Shown: positions 2,689 through 62,978 of the stretch, piece by piece
Numbering within the stretch: the first letter of the stretch is position 1
Layout of the letters: each line of letters begins with the position of its first letter
Assembly: GCA_016187125.1 (NCBI GenBank)
Contig: JACPKF010000001.1
Coordinates: 302,178-366,177 of the forward strand
Direction: 5' to 3'
DNA length: 64,000 nucleotides
DNA from: Candidatus Saccharimonadota bacterium
GTDB lineage: Bacteria > Patescibacteriota > Saccharimonadia > Saccharimonadales > UBA10212
The notes under the pieces: model-generated
The model's input: the letters and a program-made list of their open reading frames with translations, nothing else
The model's database searches: none
What the model was told of the DNA's origin: nothing
Translations under genes and position numbers: made by a program

Positions 2689-3299
2689 ACTGATGCCTCC
2701 TTGGCTCTTTTTTTTAAAAAATAGCTAATAACCGGACTATAAAGCGTGATAGCCATAAGTATGCCTGGAATGTGCCCAAATATAGGCATTTTTTTTATTC
2801 TAATGCCGGGGACTATAGTAGGTCGGCTAAAAACTATATTGTCAAACTGTGCTCTGATGTCTAACATTTTATGTTTATCGGCACTTTGCAGCTTGGCCAC
2901 ATTGGCGTCGGACATTATCAGCGACTGCTTAAAGGCTGGGTTTTTAATGTAATAGGAGAGATTCACCCCACGCAGATTCCTAATTTTGCCACACACGTAA
3001 ACCACCCCCGCTATCTTGTCTTTCCTGATCATATAGGTGTTCAAGGCAGCGCTGGCTCCGGCGCTGACGCCAACTAAGGAAACTTGGTTACCACCCGCCG
3101 CCAATTTGTCTACCAGTGCCCCGATTCTTTCCAGCTTTGGCTCAAAAGCTTCGCCGTCGGCCCAACCAATGATGTGAAATTGGGCCCTAACCCCAAATAT
3201 CCGCCATAGTTTAATAATTTTGTCCTGGCCCCATGGTCGGTGGTCGCCAATCCCCGGAAGATAAATAACATGGTGTAGCCTGCTCACTGCTATGAGCAT
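2685..3299 (-). CDS. alpha/beta hydrolase fold protein
   Basis: 204 aa. Nucleophile elbow GVSAGAS (GxSxG) after a beta-strand; HHVIYLPGIGD near the N-terminus. Confidence 0.6.
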   Translation of the reverse strand: MLIAVSRLHHVIYLPGIGDHRPWGQDKIIKLWRIFGVRAQFHIIGWADGEAFEPKLERIGALVDKLAAGGNQVSLVGVSAGASAALNTYMIRKDKIAGVVYVCGKIRNLRGVNLSYYIKNPAFKQSLIMSDANVAKLQSADKHKMLDIRAQFDNIVFSRPTIVPGIRIKKMPIFGHIPGILMAITLYSPVISYFLKKRAKEASV

Positions 3300-4631: not shown

Positions 4632-5227
4632 GGGGCTGAATTTAAGCTCGACGTTGGACTTTAACAACTAGTTTGCAGGTCGTGCGCACTGAACGTGGGA
4701 CCTACCACAGGGTGTTTTGTCAGGGCCGAAATTGAAACAATTTCGAGCGAAACAGGTTTTTTCGATTGAAGCGTAGCTAAGGCTTACGTTGAATGAGAAA
4801 AAACCGGTTGCAGCCGAAACTTGGACAATTTTTAGGCGACTAAATACCGTGTGGTAGGCCCCTAATCCGGTGCAAACCCAACAAATGCAATAGCATTTAT
4901 TTCGGGATTCGGTCTTTTGGCCGCGTTCCGAGCGCGAATTTTGGGCCTTTTCGAAGGTTTTAAATTCGCACCAGCTTACGCCTGAGGGCCTAAGCCACGC
5001 TTACCACGACATCAGATAGTGGCTGCGGCGTGTCATATTATCTGGTTGCGCAGGTTTTTCTTTCCATAAAATCTGTTAAGTTTTAGGAATAGGAGACGCG
5101 ACTTTTTGGCCATTTACCGGCCGTGTTTCCGAACTAGGACGTAAGTCCTATCCTAAATGGCCTAAACCTGTAGACGACTAGTTGAATAATCCGACGGACG
5201 TGGGTGTGATACCCACCAGCTCCACCA
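4632..5227 (+). ncRNA. ssrA: tmRNA (ssrA), unusually long (~596 nt)
   Basis: The 5' end GGGGCTGAATTTAAGCTCGACG and the 3' end GGACGTGGGTGTGATACCCACCAGCTCCACCA form the tRNA-Ala-like acceptor/T-arm. An internal open frame (4866..4982) ends ...GFKFAPAYA followed by TGA at 4983-4985, which is a plausible tag. The resume codon could not be fixed. Confidence 0.85.
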
Positions 5228-6905: not shown

Positions 6906-6952
6906 CTCTCACATGTTTAGTTTTAGGTAACCTAAAACTAAACATGTGAGAG
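6906..6952. repeat. 47-nt near-perfect palindrome (23-nt arms, 1-nt centre)
   Basis: CTCTCACATGTTTAGTTTTAGGT a ACCTAAAACTAAACATGTGAGAG. It lies between the 7052 gene stop and the 6826 gene start, and a T-run follows on the plus strand (caggttttttt). Confidence 0.8.
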
Positions 6953-18040: not shown

Positions 18041-18432
18041 AACTCCGCGGGCTTGCCAACCAGGGCTTTTGAAATCCATGGTGATCCCTGGCAGAATTCG
18101 ACCCACGCGTCAAAAACCTTGGGTTTTTGCGTTCGGGCCCGGCTTACGGTTTACTTAGTTTATGGAGCCCCCACGGCTGAAAGCCGTGGCACCTCCAATT
18201 ACCCTCCTTCGTCCGCCGGCTGGCGGACTACGGAAGGTTATCCGCCAGCCCTCAACCAGTTGATAGACTTTCCTTAGCGACATCCGCTCAAAGCCTAAGA
18301 CCGCGCATTCAACCACGGCTAAAGCCGTGGTCCTCTGCGAAGGCGGATAAACATCGCTCCGGCTGTTCGATACCCTTAGTAGCTACTAGCGAATTCAAAA
18401 AGCCCACCTCAACGGTGAACTTATCGAATGTG
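18041..18432. repeat. GC-rich cluster of palindromic units (BIME-like)
   Basis: Contains ACGCGTCAAAAACC/GGTTTTTGCGT, CCACGGCTGAAAGCCGTGG (18171-18189), TCCGCCGGCTGGCGGA (18212-18227) and CCACGGCTAAAGCCGTGG (18313-18330). Confidence 0.75.
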
Positions 18433-18508
18433 TGGTGACCCCAAGGGGAATCGAACCCCTGTTGCCAGGATGAAAACCTGGTGTCCTAGGCCACTAGACG
18501 ATGGGGCC
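18433..18508 (-). tRNA. tRNA-Glu (anticodon TTC), CCA encoded
   Basis: The reverse complement is GGCCCCATCGTCTAGTGGCCTAGGACACCAGGTTTTCATCCTGGCAACAGGGGTTCGATTCCCCTTGGGGTCACCA. The anticodon loop is TTTTCAT. Confidence 0.9.
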
Positions 18509-18551
18509 GTCTTGCGACTATTTTATCCTATCATAAGGAGTTGACACCTGT

Positions 18552-18578
18552 CTGCTACAAGGATTATCCTTGTAGCAG
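18552..18578. repeat. REP family F1 palindrome, left flank of RAYT-1
   Basis: CTGCTACAAGGATTATCCTTGTAGCAG ends on the base before the ATG at 18579. Confidence 0.9.
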
Positions 18579-19208
18579 ATGCCGCTAAAAAATGTCGTTA
18601 AGGAGTTTGTGGCTGAAAGCTACTACCATGTTTACAATCGTGGTGTCTATAAACAGAATATTTTTACCCAGGAAAGAGACTATACTGCCTTTTTAAGTCT
18701 TCCTAAACGACATCTATCTAGAGAACCAGCTCAAGATCACACTAGGCGACCACTCCCTCATTTACGTAATGATGTGGAATTATTAGCATATTGCCTAATG
18801 CCAAGCCACTTTCATCTCCTTATATACAACAAAAAAGAGTCTGGTCTGACCGACCTGATGAGAAGCATGATGACAGCCTATAGCAGATACTTTAACAAAA
18901 CCCATAAACGAAAAGGCGCCCTGTTTGAGTCGTCATATAAGGCTAGCTTGATTGATAATGAAGCTTACCTATGGCATATCAGCCGTTATATTCACCTTAA
19001 TCCTCAAGACCTAGGCTCCAAATATATTTCTTACCCCTACTCTAGTTATGCTTATTACATGGGTAATAAAAAAGCCGAATGGATTAACCCAGAAAGAATA
19101 TTAAAGATGCATGGCGACGAATTGAGTGATTATGCGAGTTTTGTAAAGGATTACGAATCAATGCGCGCTGAGCTCCAGCAACTTAAACTTTATCTAGCAG
19201 ACCACTAG
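18579..19208 (+). mobile_element. IS200/RAYT-type HUH-Y1 transposase-like protein (RAYT-1)
   Basis: 209 aa: YYHVYNRGVYKQNIF..RDY..FL, LAYCLMPSHFHLLIY (HUH), FESSYKASLID, SRYIHLNPQDLG (Tyr region). Flanked on both sides by the F1 palindrome. Confidence 0.8.
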
Positions 19209-19251
19209 TTGCTACAAGGATTATCCTTGTAGCAATTGTAGCAACTAGTGG
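19202..19251. repeat. REP family F1 palindrome, right flank of RAYT-1 (nested hairpins)
   Basis: GCTACAAGGATTATCCTTGTAGC at 19211-19233 sits within CCACTAGTTGCTACA ... TGTAGCAACTAGTGG. Confidence 0.9.
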
Positions 19252-19270
19252 TCTCGCTTCCTTGAGCAAC

Positions 19271-19305
19271 AAAAATCCCCCGTTATAGACCCGCGGGGGA
19301 TTTTT
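19271..19305. terminator. bidirectional rho-independent terminator-like hairpin
   Basis: AAAAATCCCCCG-ttatagacc-CGCGGGGGATTTTTG, with A/T runs on both sides. Confidence 0.7.
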
Positions 19306-19397
19306 GTTTATCAAGTTTTGTTTTTCCCATCCCAAGCCCCAAAGATACCTTGGCGGATGAAGAAAGAGAGCGGTCAGTCACGACTTGTCCCGTCGGA

Positions 19398-19444
19398 TTT
19401 CCGCTTCCGAGCAGTCTGTAATCAGATTGCGAGGAAGAGCGAAA
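19398..19444. repeat. structured repeat family F5 (copy 2, short form)
   Basis: TTTCCGCTTCCGAGCAGTCTGTAATCAGATTGCGAGGAAGAGCGAAA, with inner motif GCAGTCTGTAATCAGATTGC. Confidence 0.6.
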
Positions 19445-19630
19445 CCCTGTGGGATTACTCTATTGATCCTATCTGTTAGGCTAGCACAGTTTGGCTAATT
19501 CCGCAAGCCCAGTAATAGACTTTCGCGCATTCACCTCTAGTGAACTATATCCACAAAGTGGATAATCGCGAAAGCTCACTCCTGGGCAAGTGCTTATCCA
19601 TGGATTGGTCCGCTAAAAACAGCAGCTAGT

Positions 19631-20794
19631 TTAGCTGCGTCGGCGAGTCACAAAGTAGTGACTCACGCCGGCAAAGGTGCTTACCCCGGCGAACAAAGCA
19701 GCAAGGCTGCCAGTACCCGTGTTAGGCAAAGTTTTGCCTACTTGGGGAGTGGTAGGAGGATAGCTAGGAGGACTAGGAGGATAAGTGGGAGGAGTCGTTG
19801 GGGGAGCAGGCTTGGCAGGAGGCGGAGTTACAGGAGGTGTTGAAGGAGGTGGGGGCGGCGTGGCAAAGCTTACTTGATTTGAACAATAGTCGTATTGGAC
19901 AGCACCACCGACATTGAAGGCCAAAGTGGACCAAATGGTATATGTACCATCCTGTGTGTAAGTGTGGCTGGCCGAAGGGCTGCTGGTAAGCAGTGGGGTG
20001 CTGCCATCTCCCCAGTCAAAAGTGACGCTATTTAAAACTGCACCGCCAGTAGCTGTATAGTCTACGCTAGCGTTAACCTTACGATTTGGCAGAACTGCCA
20101 CGTTCAGCAAGTTACAAGAGTAAGCTGGTATAACTTGAGGCTGCACGTGTACTCGAACGCGGAGGGCTACCCAGCCGCTAAATTCTGCGCAACCGGGTAC
20201 GTCACCATTAACTGCATTGTAGCCAATTTGGGCGCCGCTGCCGGTAACAATACTGTCACTAAGCTGCACGTCATTAAGTGCGTTGGTTCGAAGTATGGCT
20301 GTGCCAGGCTCGTATTCAAGCGAAAATGGCTGGGAGCCGGTAAAGCCAACCGTATCAGTAACAGTGCCAGGGTTAGCATTATCAGCCGAAATAGAGGCAA
20401 TGCTCATTAGACTTGTAGCGGTATTTTGTGGCAGATTAATTTTAACTCTAGTGTTATGAGCAACTAGGCCAAGATTGGCCCCGGCATTATTGTGGAAGTA
20501 AATCCTAAGAACTAATTCTTGGTTATTGCTCACCGAGATGCTGTCAGCGTAAGTGCTAGTGCTAGCGGCGGCATCTCGAACCGTGTAAAACGCTCTTTCG
20601 TCACCGACAACTGGGTTATCGGTAATTGAGTTAAAGGTTATATAAGACGCCGGATTTTGCCAAGTAAAAGTTGTACGGTCTGGGGTCCAGCCGGCCAATA
20701 CTGATTTGCCGGTTAAGACAAAAACCAGCGTAGCAACCACCAACAAAGCACTAAGACTGCCGCGCTTGCTCTTTAAAGTTTTAAGTATATTCAT
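19631..20794 (-). CDS. LPXTG-anchored surface protein with PKD-like domain
   Basis: 387 aa. Signal peptide; FDWGDGS...HTYTQDGTYTI (PKD-like); Pro-rich stalk; C-terminal LPNTG followed by a hydrophobic segment and RRRS. Confidence 0.8.
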   Translation of the reverse strand: MNILKTLKSKRGSLSALLVVATLVFVLTGKSVLAGWTPDRTTFTWQNPASYITFNSITDNPVVGDERAFYTVRDAAASTSTYADSISVSNNQELVLRIYFHNNAGANLGLVAHNTRVKINLPQNTATSLMSIASISADNANPGTVTDTVGFTGSQPFSLEYEPGTAILRTNALNDVQLSDSIVTGSGAQIGYNAVNGDVPGCAEFSGWVALRVRVHVQPQVIPAYSCNLLNVAVLPNRKVNASVDYTATGGAVLNSVTFDWGDGSTPLLTSSPSASHTYTQDGTYTIWSTLAFNVGGAVQYDYCSNQVSFATPPPPPSTPPVTPPPAKPAPPTTPPTYPPSPPSYPPTTPQVGKTLPNTGTGSLAALFAGVSTFAGVSHYFVTRRRS

Positions 20795-20820
20795 ATTATT
20801 ATCCTTTATTCAATTTATTC

Positions 20821-22722
20821 TTATGGTGAGGGCGGGATTTGACTAGGGGGTTGCTTTGGAGCTGGTTGTTCAGGTGCAGGGGCTGGGGCTGGGGCTGGTG
20901 CGGGTGCGGGTGCGGGTGCGGGAGTTTGGGGAGTTTGGGGAGTCTGAGGAGTTTGGGGAGTTTGGGGAGTCTGAGGAGTTTGGGGAGTTTGGGGAGTCTG
21001 AGGAGTTTGGGGAGTCTGAGGAGTTTGGGGAGTTTGGGGAGTTTGGGGAGTCTGAGGAGTTTGGGGAGTTTGGGGAGTCTGAGATGGGGCGGGAGCAAGT
21101 TGAGTAGGGGTCTCTGCAGGAGGAGCAGGTTTAGCGGCCGCCTCGCCAACTTGGAATTTTGCTACACATTCAGCCAGTCCTTCCACAGGTACAACGGATC
21201 CGTCATGGAGCCTAAATACGGCTCTGCCGTCATTGATAGCGTTAGCATATTTATGGCTGATGCCTTGCAATTGCAATTTTCCAGCCTCGGTTGAAGGATC
21301 AATCCTGACCGACTGACCATCACCAAAGTCAAGAATGATTTCCGGTTTTTTGACATTATTGAACTCGTTAGTTCTGAGGCTGAATGTGATTTCTTTTTGT
21401 CCGGTCGCAGCTGCTTCCGCAGCAGTACACTTGGCTGTCGCAGCAGGACTCGGGGTAGGCCCTGGTTTGGGAGTAGGTGCCGGTTTAGGTTTCGGTTGCG
21501 GCTTGGGTTTGGGAGTAGGTGCCGGTTTAGGTGGCTTAACCTCTTTTTCAACGTTTTTGAGTTCTACTGTAAGATCAACAGTTTTTGGATTAGAGTCGCC
21601 GTGTATGTTCAGATACACTAAGTGGGGATTTTTCTCATCGTAGTCCGGCAAATCAGTTTCATCAATAACTAATCTTGAGCCGTCTGGACAAGATGGACCT
21701 CTCTGAGGGTTTCTGAGTATTTTAACTAGCTTGTCTAAGATAAGTACGCCGTTTCTATAGCATCTTTCACGTGCTGAAAATACACCACTAGGCGCTGGTA
21801 TTGGAAACTCACGAGTAGTCACCAATGTTTTGTGAAATTCAGGAGTAACAGGAGCGGGCACCTTGGCGGCTGGACCTTGTGGACCGGGTTTGCCCTGTTT
21901 ACCCTGTGGGCCAGTTTTGCCAGCTGGACCCTGTGGGCCAGGTTTGCCAGCTGGACCTTGTGGACCGGGTTTGCCCTGTTTACCCTGTGGGCCAGTTTTG
22001 CCAGCTGGACCCTGTGGGCCAGGTTTGCCTGAAGGGCCAGGTTTGCCTGGAGGACCCTGTGGGCCAGATTTGCCGGGTGCAGAAGGGGTTTGTGTTTTTT
22101 TGACAGGAACGTAGACCCATACAGGGACTTCTTTGCCTGTCCGTGGATTTGAACTCTCATCACTAGCACCCTCGCCGACAATTCTTTCAACTCTTTTGGA
22201 GCCTTCACGAGGGGTAAGAGAAAAACCTTCAGGAAACTCTCCTTTCAAGGAATCGATTCTAACCCATTCTGTAGAACCATCTGGCAGAGTTTTGTTACCA
22301 ACCGGTACAATCTTGCCATCCTTACAGCCTGTGTTTTGAACTACGGCACCACCAGCAAGGGTAGCCCGGCCGAAATGATTTTTTACATATCCTAGTACAG
22401 ACTCATCAACGGTTGGAATTTTATAGAATCTCACGACATCATCTAAAATACCTTTTTGCCGCCAGTGATTAACTAAAATTTCTGCCGTCGGTGCAAAGCC
22501 GCCGCAACGATCAGCCAAGAGACTAGGCGTAGCTTCTTTCAAAGGAGCGGCTTCAGCATTGCCGCTAAATTTGCCAACACCTGCTATAGTAGCAACGGCT
22601 GCTAGCCCACTAGCCATAAACATCGCTAGCTTACCTCTGCGGTCGGGAGTGGCTGTCGGTTCAGTCTCAAAAGCAGGAACCAGAGTTAAGACTGGTGCAG
22701 CTTCCATAGTAGGATGATTCAC
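20821..22722 (-). CDS. secreted collagen-like / TPQ-repeat surface protein
   Basis: 633 aa with a GTG start 10 nt after AGAGGA. It has 23 uninterrupted G-X-Y triplets, PKPxP tracts, DFGDGQS (PKD-like), 18 TPQ repeats and a (PA)n tract. Confidence 0.8.
20923..21084. repeat. 18 tandem 9-bp repeats (AGTTTGGGG / AGTCTGAGG) encoding (TPQ)18
   Basis: Counted directly. The two unit variants are interspersed. Hexamer repeats GGGGCT/GGTGCG (about 20877-20922) lie adjacent. Confidence 0.95.
21868..22074. repeat. collagen-like G-X-Y coding repeat (23 triplets)
   Basis: [69 protein letters not shown]. It contains an internal duplication of about 63 nt. Confidence 0.9.
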
Positions 22723-23008
22723 TTTAATAATTTCCTCTTATTAATCTTGCCTATTTCTCCACCCTGCGCTTTTCCCAAGCGAGGATTACTCACACCTTAA
22801 CACTAAGGTTAGAGTTTGTCAACGATTATATAACCTTTTTTGCTAAGCACAAGCATTTTACCCTCAAAATCCCCCTAAAAATGTTAGTTATTTCACAACA
22901 TTTTATAAAATTATCAAAGCCGTCATGACGCCTGACCAGCTAGCCGATTTGCTAAGAACTCAGCTGAAAACAATAGCAGTTGCGCGGTTTCTATCAAATA
23001 CAGCCATT

Positions 23009-23056
23009 TGTGATAGCTTGTGATAGGTTGAACCTATCACAAGACCTATCACAAAT
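23009..23056. repeat. REP family F2 palindrome, flank of RAYT-2 (stop side)
   Basis: TGTGATAGCTTGTGATAGGTTGAACCTATCACAAGACCTATCACA, with the core at 23020-23040. It overlaps the RAYT-2 stop codon. Confidence 0.9.
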
Positions 23057-23669
23057 CATTAGCTAACTGATGCTTAAGCACAGCCAGTTCAGCTTTTGTC
23101 TCAACATAATCATCTAAGAATTGTTGATATTCCAAGGAGTTATTACTAAATAAGCTCAGAATAGGCTCTGGATTTACCCACGTAGTTTTTTTAATGCCCA
23201 TGTAAACCGGATAGCTTGAATATGGCCAGTGTTTGTAATCATTAGGATTGAGATGTATGTAGCGTGATATATGATGCAGATAAGCATCTGCGTCAATCCG
23301 AGAAGCTCTGTACACACCTTGAAAGAGACCGCCCACTCTTTGGTATCGGTTGTTGAAATACATAACGTAACCTGTATTAACACGTCGCATTAGTTCTATA
23401 ATGGCCGACTCTGATGACTGATAAAAAAGCAGGTGTAGGTGGTTGGGCATCAGACAATATGCCAGCAGCTTAAGCTCGCTTTGAAAATTCTTAAAAATAT
23501 GTCTGTTTTGTTTGTTAGTAGATTCCCCTGATAAGTATTTCTTCAGGAGCCCCAGAAAAATAATGTAGTCCTGCTCGTCAGTAAAAATTACCCGCTTTTC
23601 TATACCTCGATTGTAAACATGGTAATAACTATCCGGCGCAAACTCTCTAACAACATTTCTACTTGGCAT
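23049..23669 (-). mobile_element. IS200/RAYT-type HUH-Y1 transposase-like protein (RAYT-2)
   Basis: The start is taken at MPSRNVV (ATG 23669); the track GTG start lies inside the palindrome. Motifs: YYHVYNRGIEKRVIF, LAYCLMPNHLHLLFY (HUH), SRYIHLNPNDYK. Confidence 0.8.
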
Positions 23670-23690
23670 GTGATAGGTTAAACCTATCAC
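23670..23690. repeat. REP family F2 palindrome, flank of RAYT-2 (start side)
   Basis: GTGATAGGTTAAACCTATCAC lies immediately adjacent to the ATG at 23669. Confidence 0.9.
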
Positions 23691-23729
23691 AAAATAGGCT
23701 GGCTGTCATTTATGAGTTAGAGCAATTTT

Positions 23730-23767
23730 CCATGTGATAGATGTGATAGGTTTAACCTATCACATGG
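23730..23767. repeat. REP family F2 palindrome (second start-side copy)
   Basis: CCATGTGATAGATGTGATAGGTTTAACCTATCACATGG, with the core at 23743-23763. Confidence 0.9.
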
Positions 23768-25148: not shown

Positions 25149-25170
25149 ATAGTGGATTGTAAACTTTGAT

Positions 25171-25206
25171 ACCCCACTTTTGGTCCGATCGGACCAAAAG
25201 TGGGGT
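25171..25206. terminator. 36-nt perfect palindrome between convergent murD and murI (bidirectional terminator-like)
   Basis: ACCCCACTTTTGGTCCGATCGGACCAAAAGTGGGGT. Confidence 0.75.
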
Positions 25207-25226
25207 AGTTTGATTGCTATCTTAAA

Positions 25227-27910: not shown

Positions 27911-27953
27911 GCTACAAGTGCTACAAGAGTGCTACAAGGATTATCCATGTAGC
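27911..27953. repeat. REP family F1 copy with two leading half-sites
   Basis: GCTACAAG (27911), GCTACAAG (27920), then GCTACAAGGATTATCCATGTAGC (27931-27953, 1 mismatch). Confidence 0.85.
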
Positions 27954-42437: not shown

Positions 42438-42483
42438 TCATTTCCTAATAGATTATGCGATCGCATAATCTATTAGGAAATGA
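42438..42483. promoter_or_regulatory. 46-bp perfect palindrome upstream of the HTH-MurA gene (candidate operator)
   Basis: TCATTTCCTAATAGATTATGCGA|TCGCATAATCTATTAGGAAATGA. It is followed by TTGACG-16 nt-TATCAT and then the ATG at 42550. Confidence 0.6.
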
Positions 42484-46217: not shown

Positions 46218-46233
46218 TCCGCCAGCTGGCGGA
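46218..46233. repeat. F3 palindrome TCCGCCAGCTGGCGGA (intergenic)
   Basis: Exact 16-mer. The flanking AATCC matches the metG and tsaB copies. Confidence 0.9.
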
Positions 46234-48546: not shown

Positions 48547-48620
48547 AACTCCCTGAACCTCAAAACCCCCAGTCAACGTGTAAAGTTAAGGACCGACTCA
48601 TCCGTTGTTTACAAGGAGTT

Positions 48621-48645
48621 GTTTACAAGGAGCCTCCTTGTAAAC
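48621..48645. terminator. hairpin between convergent genes (F1-related palindrome)
   Basis: GTTTACAAGGAGCCTCCTTGTAAAC, preceded by a TTGTTTACAAGGAG half copy. Confidence 0.55.
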
Positions 48646-53607: not shown

Positions 53608-53899
53608 AAGTGCTAGGGACGGAGATATTACTACTTGTCCGCTCGAAAGCTTAAGCATCTCGCTAATTAAGTGAAGCGCTCCACGGACTAAAGTCCGTGG
53701 CTTCAGGCTTGCGGCTTTCGGAGCGTGGAACCCCGCACCGAAAGCCAGAACTGGCATTCAGCCCCGAACTAAAGTTCGAGGCTTTCTGGTGCGTGGGTAA
53801 ACTCGAACTGCCACAGGCAGTTCTCCGGTCGTGGGTTAGCGCTGCGCGAGAGCCAGAGCGCTATCCCGCCACCCCGACCATTCAAAACTTAGCGATTTT
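53608..53899. repeat. GC-rich cluster of palindromic units (BIME-like)
   Basis: CCACGGACTAAAGTCCGTGG (53681-53700), CCCGAACTAAAGTTCGAGG, CTGCCACAGGCAG and other hairpins. The track ORFs here were rejected. Confidence 0.7.
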
Positions 53900-57342: not shown

Positions 57343-57358
57343 TCCGCCAGCTGGCGGA
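57343..57358. repeat. F3 palindrome TCCGCCAGCTGGCGGA (intergenic)
   Basis: Exact 16-mer in a GC-rich spacer. Confidence 0.9.
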
Positions 57359-62474: not shown

Positions 62475-62978
62475 TTATTTTTTGGGTTTAGTTATATTTG
62501 GCGGCGAGCCATATGCAGGTACAGCGATTTTGTCTCCGCCAGCTGGCGGATTGCCGGCAAGTAAATCTTCAATCCCTTCCTGTATCCAACCTTGGCCTCT
62601 ACGCGCGACTATCGGAATATGGTTGGCAGAAGCCAAGGCATTGGCGACAGTCAGGCCAATCCGCAGGCCTGTAAAACTGCCCGGGCCTTTGAAGCAAACG
62701 ATTCCCTGGATATCATTCCAACAAACATTTGATTTGTTAAGTAATCTCTTAATTTGGGAATGAATAGTCTTGGATAACTCCAGATGGGCTTGCCATTTAA
62801 GCTGGCCGAGCTTTTTTTTGTCGTCATTGTGAAAGGTCCGTCCTTTCACACTATATAAATACAGCTCGGCCTGATGCTTATCGGTCCTAATTCCTAAGAT
62901 AGCTGTGCCCCGCTCCTTTTCAGGGTGGAGCAGTCGGTAATCAGATTGTGGAACACCTTGAAAAGGTGCGCGGGTCAT
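62475..62978 (-). CDS. tsaB: tRNA t6A biosynthesis protein TsaB (N-terminal domain type)
   Basis: KGPGSFTGLRIGLTVANALA. The ATG at 62978 overlaps the tsaE stop (ATGA). The first ~24 codons are encoded by an F5 repeat, and the C-terminus contains the F3 palindrome. Confidence 0.8.
   Translation of the reverse strand: MTRAPFQGVPQSDYRLLHPEKERGTAILGIRTDKHQAELYLYSVKGRTFHNDDKKKLGQLKWQAHLELSKTIHSQIKRLLNKSNVCWNDIQGIVCFKGPGSFTGLRIGLTVANALASANHIPIVARRGQGWIQEGIEDLLAGNPPAGGDKIAVPAYGSPPNITKPKK
62535..62550. repeat. F3 palindrome TCCGCCAGCTGGCGGA (inside tsaB)
   Basis: Exact 16-mer, translated as NPPAGG on the minus strand. Confidence 0.9.
62908..62974. repeat. structured repeat family F5 (copy 5) inside the tsaB 5' end
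   Basis: CCCCGCTCCTTTTCAGG-GTGGAGCAGTCGGTAATCAGATTGTGGAAC-ACCTTGAAAAGGTGCGCGGG. Confidence 0.7.

Follow-up and report, generated by a model that had tools for sequence, protein, structure and literature searches.

In a 64,000-nucleotide stretch of a Candidatus Saccharimonadota genome (contig JACPKF010000001.1, positions 302,178 to 366,177; hereafter the window), a gene for a HUH-Y1 protein lies between two copies of one 23-nt palindrome. We refer to this gene with its flanks as module 1 and to the palindrome as P1. The gene occupies 18579..19208 on the plus strand and encodes 209 amino acids (aa); its neighbours are a tRNA-Glu gene, a PKD-domain gene and a Mur ligase gene. The left neighbour, tRNA-Glu(UUC) (18433..18508, minus strand; ARAGORN and Rfam), is conserved in five genomes. 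An original prediction, made from the letters of this DNA, had recognised motifs of the IS200/COG1943 type in the coding sequence. All three can be read from the translation of the open reading frame (ORF): YHVYNRG, LAYCLMPSHFHLL as the HUH motif, and SRYIHLNP.

The key residues of the protein are H77-F-H79 and Y137, the latter within RYIHLNP, and its C-terminal helical tail bears a YPYSSY motif. The Pfam profile Y1_Tnp (PF01797), named in the prediction as a suitable check, gives a significant match over residues 63-139 (45.8 bits, cut-off 23; E 7.8e-12); the Pfam search returned no domain besides Y1_Tnp and no helix-turn-helix (HTH) match. Across an alignment of 29 homologs, M1, P2, H77, H79 and R136-Y137-I138-H139-x-N141 do not vary at all and P142 hardly varies. 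The AlphaFold2 (AF2) model has a pLDDT of 90.4, and its best Foldseek match in the PDB is 4er8_A, the E. coli TnpAREP/RAYT protein (REP-associated tyrosine transposase; REP, repetitive extragenic palindrome) bound to a REP hairpin, with E 1.3e-6, a target-normalised TM of 0.65 and a root-mean-square deviation of 3.3 A. The top 30 PDB matches are all Y1 transposases, with those of ISDra2, IS608 and IS200 following 4er8. Relatives of the protein amount to 2,036 cluster representatives (50% identity, E<=1e-30); the source names of the close ones are Saccharibacteria, Microgenomates and 'bacterium G20', and some JGI entries carry the label RayT. An NCBI protein that is 100% identical comes from a 397-kb contig of a Candidatus Saccharibacteria metagenome-assembled genome. 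The gene is under strong purifying selection, with a ratio of nonsynonymous to synonymous divergence (dN/dS) of 0.05 against the G20 ortholog (locus L134). This ratio is computable only for that pair, the other ortholog pairs being saturated in dS (most have dN of ~0.19-0.20).

P1 is a perfect 11-1-11 palindrome, TGCTACAAGGAT-T-ATCCTTGTAGCA, and the 23-mer GCTACAAGGATTATCCTTGTAGC is exact at 18554-18576 and again at 19211-19233, just as first claimed. The 5' copy (18551..18579; 29 nt, core 18554-18576, outer pair TCTGC..GCAGA) ends on an A that is also the A of the ATG, and its predicted hairpin as single-stranded DNA (ssDNA) has -13.6 kcal/mol (z = -7.7). The 3' copy (19209..19235; 27 nt, core 19211-19233) lies 2 nt past the stop codon. 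Enclosing it is the larger hairpin of the prediction (19200..19253), whose arms are real: GACCACTAGTTGCTACA (19200-19216) and TGTAGCAACTAGTGGTC (19237-19253), the right arm opening with an additional P1 half-site, TGTAGCA (19237-19243). A 63-nt stretch of this region folds as ssDNA at -22.7 kcal/mol (z = -9.4). In 100 shuffles of the window the 23-mer found no match, even with up to 3 mismatches. Whether gathering thresholds or relaxed E-values were applied, Rfam returned nothing at the palindromes or at the conserved non-coding block beside module 1. Neither tnpB nor ends of the IS200/IS605 type were found around module 1 within the window; a complete IS200/IS605 element, which the prediction had named as the finding that would speak against it, is thus not what surrounds the gene.

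Ahead of the gene lies a promoter-like TTGACA-18 nt-TATCCT (18541..18570, plus strand; consensus scan, 10/12 matches). Its -10 element falls within the 5' P1, the predicted transcript start is at about the ATG, and no space is left for a Shine-Dalgarno sequence; the N-terminal MP is invariant. The block TTGACAcCTGTcTGCTACAaGGATtATCCTTGTAGCAgATG is nearly invariant among four orthologous loci. Judged by this layout, the mRNA of module 1 is possibly leaderless and limited by the hairpin. Because the 5' P1 overlaps both promoter and start codon, it probably also restrains expression of module 1.

A second gene and dispersed palindromes in the window

A paralogous HUH-Y1 gene, module 2, lies 4 kb from module 1 (23049..23669, minus strand; tblastn and BLASTP). 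It is 50% identical to module 1, carries the motifs NHLH and YIHLNP, and has a palindrome of its own, so the earlier description of module 1 as single-copy is not strictly correct. This palindrome, P2, is distinct from P1: TGTGATAGGTT-N-AACCTATCACA (TGTGATAGG..CCTATCACA). The final A of the 5' copy, TGTGATAGGTTTAACCTATCACA (23669..23691), is again the A of the ATG. About 50 nt further upstream stand another P2 (23741-23765) and a half-site, CTATCACAT (23732-23740; the whole at 23730..23767), and the two P2 copies make up an upstream doublet. At the stop codon, a 3' P2 (23017-23043) sits between half-sites (23008..23054), CTATCACAA at 23008-23016 and TTGTGATAGG at 23045-23054, the latter overlapping the stop codon; this region folds as ssDNA at -16.0 kcal/mol (z = -8.6). 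Since P1 goes with module 1 and P2 with module 2, each paralog has its own cognate palindrome, as in REPtrons (PMC6006769).

Copies of the palindromes also occur away from the two genes. A solo P2 (14129-14153) with two direct half-sites upstream (14110..14153) is intergenic; it is absent from the syntenic loci L003, L041 and L134, although high divergence or a missing neighbouring gene keeps these from serving as clean empty sites. One solo P1 (27931-27953, one mismatch) stands behind two direct half-sites GCTACAAG (27911 and 27920; the site spans 27911..27953), between a 5-formyltetrahydrofolate (5-FTHF) cyclo-ligase gene and a Vut_1 transporter gene. The other (8960..8982) differs from the 23-mer at the central base only and lies in frame within rsmA/ksgA and is not extragenic. 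An orphan palindrome, GTTTACAAGGAGCCTCCTTGTAAAC (48621-48645), with a direct half-site at 48607 (48607..48645), lies between convergent genes and resembles the flank of homolog L053. All the further copies that had been listed, including the two half-sites and this relative, are therefore present. A second orphan palindrome, TGTGAAAGGTCCGTCCTTTCACA (62828..62850), lies in a TsaB/TsaD-family ORF (62475..62978, minus strand), upstream of the Pfam-matching part. Its reverse complement is identical to a palindrome flanking homolog L054, and it is probably a further in-frame insertion.

The solo copies in 64 kb, two of P1 and one of P2, compare with a chance expectation of 0. The prediction had called for a count beyond the flanking pair, and the sister metagenome-assembled genomes (MAGs) add 1-2 solo P1 copies each; the P1 family looks small. 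A palindrome scan of a genome collection (596 Gb) gave 48 matches, of which ~9-17 are expected by chance, and singletons from unrelated phyla were treated as noise. Only Saccharibacteria/Patescibacteria loci (~18) and Halomonas loci (11) were enriched.

The rsmA/ksgA gene (8719..9561, minus strand) holds three in-frame palindromes. P1 at 8960 encodes ATRIILVA, in a variable loop of KsgA. Two more palindromes of the same design (9307..9360), TTGCAGGGATTGTCCCTGCAA (9307-9327) and TTGCAAGGCTTGGCCTTGCAA (9340-9360), encode LQGQSLQ and LQGQALQ and belong to families found at the flanks of homologs elsewhere, the one at 9340 resembling the flanks of L060 and L071 (compare L072). The ksgA orthologs encode 252-286 aa and differ in length at three hot spots, whose DNA contains same-design palindromes of different families in different genomes: L130 has a P2-type copy, a 41-nt doublet and P1, L131 has three other families, L133 has one and L132 none. 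The second and third hot spots have gained 27-41 nt, in agreement with the palindromes present; at the first, a palindrome of 23 nt stands in place of 23 nt and the length is unchanged, for which we have no explanation. Palindromes of this design show insertion polymorphism among ksgA orthologs. P1 itself is common to orthologs P0122, P0123 and P0125 and absent from most others, and 23 of its 24 nt are identical between the window and L130 though the synonymous sites of the gene are saturated: this copy is old yet kept. In-frame REPs within genes have precedent (PMC3733652).

Two further observations concern the repeats themselves. Direct repeats of one palindrome arm, the half-sites, stand beside most copies in the window (27911-27930, 14110-14128, 48607-48618, 19237-19243, 23008-23016, 23045-23054 and 23732-23740), and also occur in L006, L012, L036 and the Halomonas REP loci; they are predicted by no described REP mechanism. 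The Halomonas loci (L002, L004, L009, L022, L023, L025, L028, L032, L035, L038 and L040) carry REP-like repeats with the same 9-bp stem, GCTACAAGG/CCTTGTAGC, adjoined by GCTACAAG half-sites. No homolog of the module 1 protein was found inside these 8-kb loci, and the common stem may reflect either convergence or a recognition code held in common.

Homolog loci and orthologs in other genomes

We compared the ends of homologous genes in 80 metagenomic loci, 69 of which have enough flanking sequence, with those of 129 other genes in the same loci. A palindrome was scored when it was perfect, had a stem of at least 8 and lay within ~100 nt of the gene start or near the stop. Upstream palindromes were found in 32/69 homologs against 6/129 controls, downstream ones in 41/69 against 15/129, and both together in 24/69 against 1/129. 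The same palindrome stood on both sides of 18 of the 69 homologs and of none of the 129 controls (Fisher p of 1e-9 to 1e-12 for these counts). An earlier comparison of palindrome density at gene ends with that of whole loci had given a 17-fold excess; this figure is too high because palindromes concentrate in intergenic DNA, and the gene-end control replaces it. Bracketing by a palindrome of its own is a property of the homolog family.

The flanking palindromes have the consensus TTTACAAGGTC-N-GACCTTGTAAA and a common core, ACAAGG-N5-CCTTGT, with stems that vary by locus. Of 88, 84 are symmetric with a single central base, and RGG stands next to the centre in 64/88 as opposed to 12/94 other palindromes. 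In L057, L060, L071, L072, L106, L108, L121 and L123 the flanks are inverted doublets. Orthologs with the cognate palindrome on both sides are L041, L003, L050, L026 and L036. We also considered whether flanking palindromes might be ordinary terminators and rejected the idea: control genes rarely have any and never the same one on both sides, and P1 is without a T-run.

The module 1 gene lies beside tRNA-Glu in five genomes (the window, L041, L003, L050 and L134). Although dS is saturated between most of these, the block TTGACA-CTGT-TGCTACAAGGAT-ATCCTTGTAGCA-ATG is almost invariant. Where the palindrome does change, compensatory changes keep it paired. The 3' copy of L050 reads GCTACAGGG..CCCTGTAGC, a double compensatory change of which the 5' copy holds half, and where the window has the outer pair TCTGC..GCAGA, L041 has TTTGC..GCAAA. 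In L134, the upstream copies of module 2 have one mismatch each, compensating across the doublet; such cross-doublet compensation is the signature by which REPINs (REP doublets forming hairpins) are defined. Decay is seen as well, with two frameshifts in the L003 ortholog and a degenerate 3' palindrome in L134. In L137, the place where module 1 would sit (3005-3075) holds a near-perfect 39-nt inverted doublet of the TTGCAGGG type, TTGCAGGGATTGGCCTTGT-T-ACAAGGCTAATCCCTGCAA, from the same family as one found in frame in the ksgA of the window.

Bacterium G20 (L134) also has the 3' part of tRNA-Glu duplicated over 55 nt (4793-4847) on the pgk side, ~100 nt from the complete gene (4950-5025). This duplicate could be the trace of an integration or recombination event.

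Interpretation of module 1 and its rivals

In our view module 1 is likely to represent a REPtron-like unit in which a RAYT-like HUH-Y1 gene is bracketed by its cognate, hairpin-forming palindrome. The best reading is that it belongs to a clade of the candidate phyla radiation (CPR) whose substrate is unlike the studied REPs in being symmetric, having an ACAAGG core and lacking an unpaired GTAG foot. REPtrons, which join RAYT/TnpAREP genes to REP or REPIN repeats (E. coli yafM/rayT, 4ER8), likewise have a HUH-Y1 gene bracketed by a hairpin repeat that is found elsewhere too. The likeness extends to a separate repeat family for each paralog, apparently to a low number of gene copies with divergent paralogs, to the Y---NP tyrosine motif (YIHLNP here) and the nearest solved structure, and to inverted doublets with cross-copy compensation (L134), as for REPINs. 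Occasional in-frame copies inside genes are a further shared trait (PMC3733652). REPtrons are also known from Pseudomonas, Stenotrophomonas and Marinomonas and correspond to Quentin subclasses 2.2 and 2.5, or Bertels groups 2 and 3.

The REPtron interpretation of the original prediction is thus supported by fold, bracketing, compensation and ksgA polymorphism; what stands is a variant, with a protein below the RAYT cut-off, no GTAG foot and a low copy number. Several observations weigh against it. The RAYT profile check that the prediction had also proposed gave a match to NCBIfam NF047646 (REP_Tyr_transpos, an equivalog), but at 48.8 bits, under the cut-off of 80; all 29 sampled homologs match this profile, with a best E of 2e-14. 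PDB sequence searches with the single protein and with a 29-sequence profile yielded only a marginal match to ISDra2 TnpA (E 0.026) and did not reach 4er8, so that the link to TnpAREP is seen at the level of the fold only. P1 is fully symmetric, without the unpaired 5' GT[AG]G foot of the studied systems: a GTAG does occur, base-paired as part of the 3' arm, and P2 carries GTGA. In studied REPtrons the unpaired tag makes the enzyme strand-specific and directs where it cleaves (PMC8266576, PMC6006769). Copies are few, two solo P1 in 64 kb where REPtrons have hundreds, and cognate solo copies occur inside the 4-kb flanks of only 5 of the 80 homolog loci. The ksgA P1 is common to species that are ~72% identical and is therefore old, not a sign of recent activity. 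Against G20, the synonymous divergence of module 1 is below that of the flanking genes (dS 1.39 and third-position identity of 60%, whereas the adjacent PGK, TIM and hypothetical genes are saturated, with 34-41%), and three relatives with the same pgk/tRNA-Glu synteny (L137-L139) have no homolog of module 1. The low dS and these absences argue against simple vertical descent, and the module 1 unit may itself move or recombine between lineages. Other differences from known REPtrons are the host, a small-genome member of the Saccharibacteria (CPR) as opposed to a large proteobacterial genome, and the overlap of the 5' copy with promoter and start codon.

If the REPtron-like reading is correct, the palindrome would fold into a hairpin when the DNA is single-stranded, for example at a replication fork, and the module 1 protein would bind it. 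The ACAAGG..CCTTGT core would probably serve recognition at the family level, and the outer stem (GCTAC and TGTGAT for modules 1 and 2, respectively) with the loop would probably serve recognition specific to each paralog. A cut near the foot of the hairpin could then follow, with Tyr137 as nucleophile and a metal bound by His77/His79 assisting, and strands would be re-joined such that palindromes are copied, maintained or homogenised at new sites. In a gene-dense genome, such sites might be intergenic DNA or permissive loops of proteins such as KsgA. The paralog 4 kb away would run a second, separate palindrome family. The steps past hairpin formation are modelled on studied relatives (PMC8266576); catalysis, the single-stranded substrate and a role of the protein as mover or maintainer of the palindromes are, by that analogy, what we infer.

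Alternatively, the palindromes could be cis-regulatory or structural elements (operators, translation-blocking hairpins, stabilisers of mRNA 3' ends or sites for host factors) that arise from host processes and are not mobilised by the protein, their link to Y1 genes reflecting autoregulation or a preference of the gene for landing beside palindromes. The 5' copy does cover a conserved promoter-like site and the start codon, and the 3' copy comes right after the stop and before a terminator-like hairpin (19271-19309, by eye). The small number of solo copies, the ancient copies conserved in place (P1 in ksgA) and palindrome families with no nearby Y1 gene, such as TCCGCCAGCTGGCGGA with four copies, also fit a regulatory role. 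We nevertheless regard this explanation as unlikely. It leaves unexplained why different paralogs and orthologs have their own palindrome on both sides, why the same families lie in frame in housekeeping genes at sites that are empty in relatives, and why orphan palindromes of the window match the flanks of homologs in other genomes. In addition, the studied HUH-Y1 enzymes of this fold are all hairpin-specific ssDNA nucleases (PMC8266576).

Module 1 might instead be a minimal autonomous insertion sequence (IS) of the IS200 type with tnpA only, the unit of ~680 bp from palindrome to palindrome being the element, these two palindromes its left-end and right-end hairpins, and the solo palindromes its scars or derivatives resembling miniature inverted-repeat transposable elements (MITEs). 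Size and layout fit: like IS200, this is a unit of ~0.7 kb in which one Y1 gene with the same catalytic fold lies between two subterminal hairpins, one of them over the translation start. The unit adjoins a tRNA gene, many homologs are on very short contigs, and the lower divergence from G20 and the absence from L137-L139 are as expected for a mobile unit. IS200 transposases have ~150 aa and occur as several near-identical copies. Module 1, by contrast, encodes 209 aa, with a 70-aa C-terminal extension and 4er8 as the best structural match, and has symmetric ends, so that there are no distinct left and right cleavage sites. We found no set of near-identical copies with tnpB but one copy of each paralog in the window, and a search of the 80 homolog loci revealed no further homolog inside 4 kb. 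The sole paralog in the window has different ends and is just 50% identical, so this is not a multicopy IS. The five genomes share the tRNA-Glu-adjacent position even though synonymous sites are saturated. Further, YIHLNP is of the class 2, TnpAREP-like kind, not the Y---Q of IS200 transposases (subclass 1.1; PMC6006769 Table 1). Taken together, we judge an IS200-type element to be quite improbable.

Least plausible, to a degree that we would give it very little weight, is a decaying relic, in which the palindromes would be fossils of an earlier spread by the system and the gene would today serve some other host function or none: low copy number, the L003 frameshifts, the degenerate 3' palindrome of L134 and the absence of the gene from L137-L139 with same-design palindromes present at the corresponding spot of L137 would suit it, but strong purifying selection, three window copies with identical stems that differ in the central base alone (the gene-flanking pair being identical), compensatory changes in both flanking copies and palindromes that are invariant across orthologs with saturated synonymous sites, where fossils would have drifted, all speak against it.

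Within the REPtron-like reading, other known groups offer partial likenesses. By motif comparison only, the protein resembles subclass 2.1 (Bertels group 1, or TIRYTs, terminal inverted repeat (TIR)-associated tyrosine transposases), sharing the second motif set in Table 1 of PMC6006769: the HUH motif as NHFH (SHFH in module 1), YIHLNP, a proximal SS tail (YPYSSY) and G-x-LFQ/LFE in place of the W motif. Self-complementary repeats in moderate numbers border some of the TIRYT genes (PMC3733652). Subclass 2.1 is described as having no REP, a C-terminal HTH (Bac_DnaA_C, HTH_23 or HTH_28) and a median of 238 aa (PMC6006769), whereas the module 1 protein has 209 aa and no Pfam HTH match, its palindromes are short and perfect with an ACAAGG core, and the long TIRs with a GGGGWSAS motif are not at module 1. 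Rickettsia palindromic elements (RPEs) are also short palindromes in frame in housekeeping genes, in permissive loops and in a reduced genome. RPEs are longer, ~100-150 bp, and are not known to have a dedicated transposase; the inserts seen here have 21-41 nt and come from families that flank Y1 genes.

In the literature that we searched, RAYT, REP or IS200-type systems are nowhere described for Saccharibacteria/CPR. The remark in the original prediction that such a module is unusual for a reduced genome of the CPR type fits this, as in the survey of Quentin et al. (2018, PMC6006769) it was chiefly the larger genomes that had non-IS TnpAY1 genes. A broader possibility, which we put forward tentatively and with some doubt, is that a large undescribed RAYT-like clade (~2,000 50%-identity clusters, E<=1e-30) is widespread in Saccharibacteria/CPR, each member with its own symmetric ACAAGG-N5-CCTTGT palindrome, actively written and maintained in genomes of ~1 Mb and tolerated in frame at hot spots of essential genes (three in KsgA). 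If so, in-frame palindromes would yield species-specific loop peptides in genomes with almost no intergenic space. A symmetric substrate without a GTAG guide would then imply recognition and a choice of cleavage site unlike those of every studied REPtron.

Nearly all known RAYT/REP systems come from large genomes of proteobacteria and cyanobacteria. Ultra-small episymbiont genomes shed nearly all that is dispensable. The present analysis places a repeat system of the REP/RAYT type, mostly known from large proteobacterial genomes, in the CPR. That such a genome maintains at least two paralog–palindrome pairs, and does so under strong purifying selection, makes the pure-parasite view harder to hold. 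Module 1 is also a compact study case, with a protein of 209 aa and a symmetric substrate of 23 nt, and two natural specificities 4 kb apart allow hairpin recognition without a GTAG guide to be tested. Through the palindromes at ksgA hot spots these elements shape CPR protein sequences, and the in-frame copies could be fine-scale strain markers. CPR metagenomes probably owe some of their assembly breaks to these palindromic repeats; the start of a 903-bp Logan contig with the module 1 protein lies 4 nt before the 5' palindrome.

Other features of the window

Beyond the 3' P1, a hairpin resembling a terminator was recognised by eye at 19271-19309. Two non-coding blocks downstream of module 1 (19368-19464 and 19498-19597) are 90% identical to L003 and 86% to L134, while the protein genes beside them reach only 65-71%. 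The blocks have no Rfam match and may be an unannotated small RNA or regulatory region. Two adjoining ORFs that resemble surface proteins follow at 19631-22722 on the minus strand. The first has a PKD domain, a proline-rich tail and a C-terminal anchor-like segment, and the second has collagen-like G-x-x-GPQG repeats plus a long TPQ repeat. On the other side of module 1, a small hairpin, CCACGG(C/A)T-AAA-G(C/T)CCGTGG, occurs at 18171-18189 and 18312-18331, both between pgk and tRNA-Glu, and again at 53681-53700.

Other palindromes are scattered through the window. The 16-nt perfect palindrome TCCGCCAGCTGGCGGA, which contains CAGCTG, has its four copies at 130-145, 46218-46233, 57343-57358 and 62535-62550 within unrelated flanks; it is a separate dispersed family that is not of the ACAAGG design. 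There are also long perfect palindromes at 6906-6952 (47 nt), 25170-25207 (38 nt) and 42438-42483 (46 nt). The latter two have GATC / CGATCG at the centre, the 38-nt one standing between convergent genes and the 46-nt one between divergent genes, and the first has a core, TTTTAGGT-A-ACCTAAAA, that is like the RAYT-type design.

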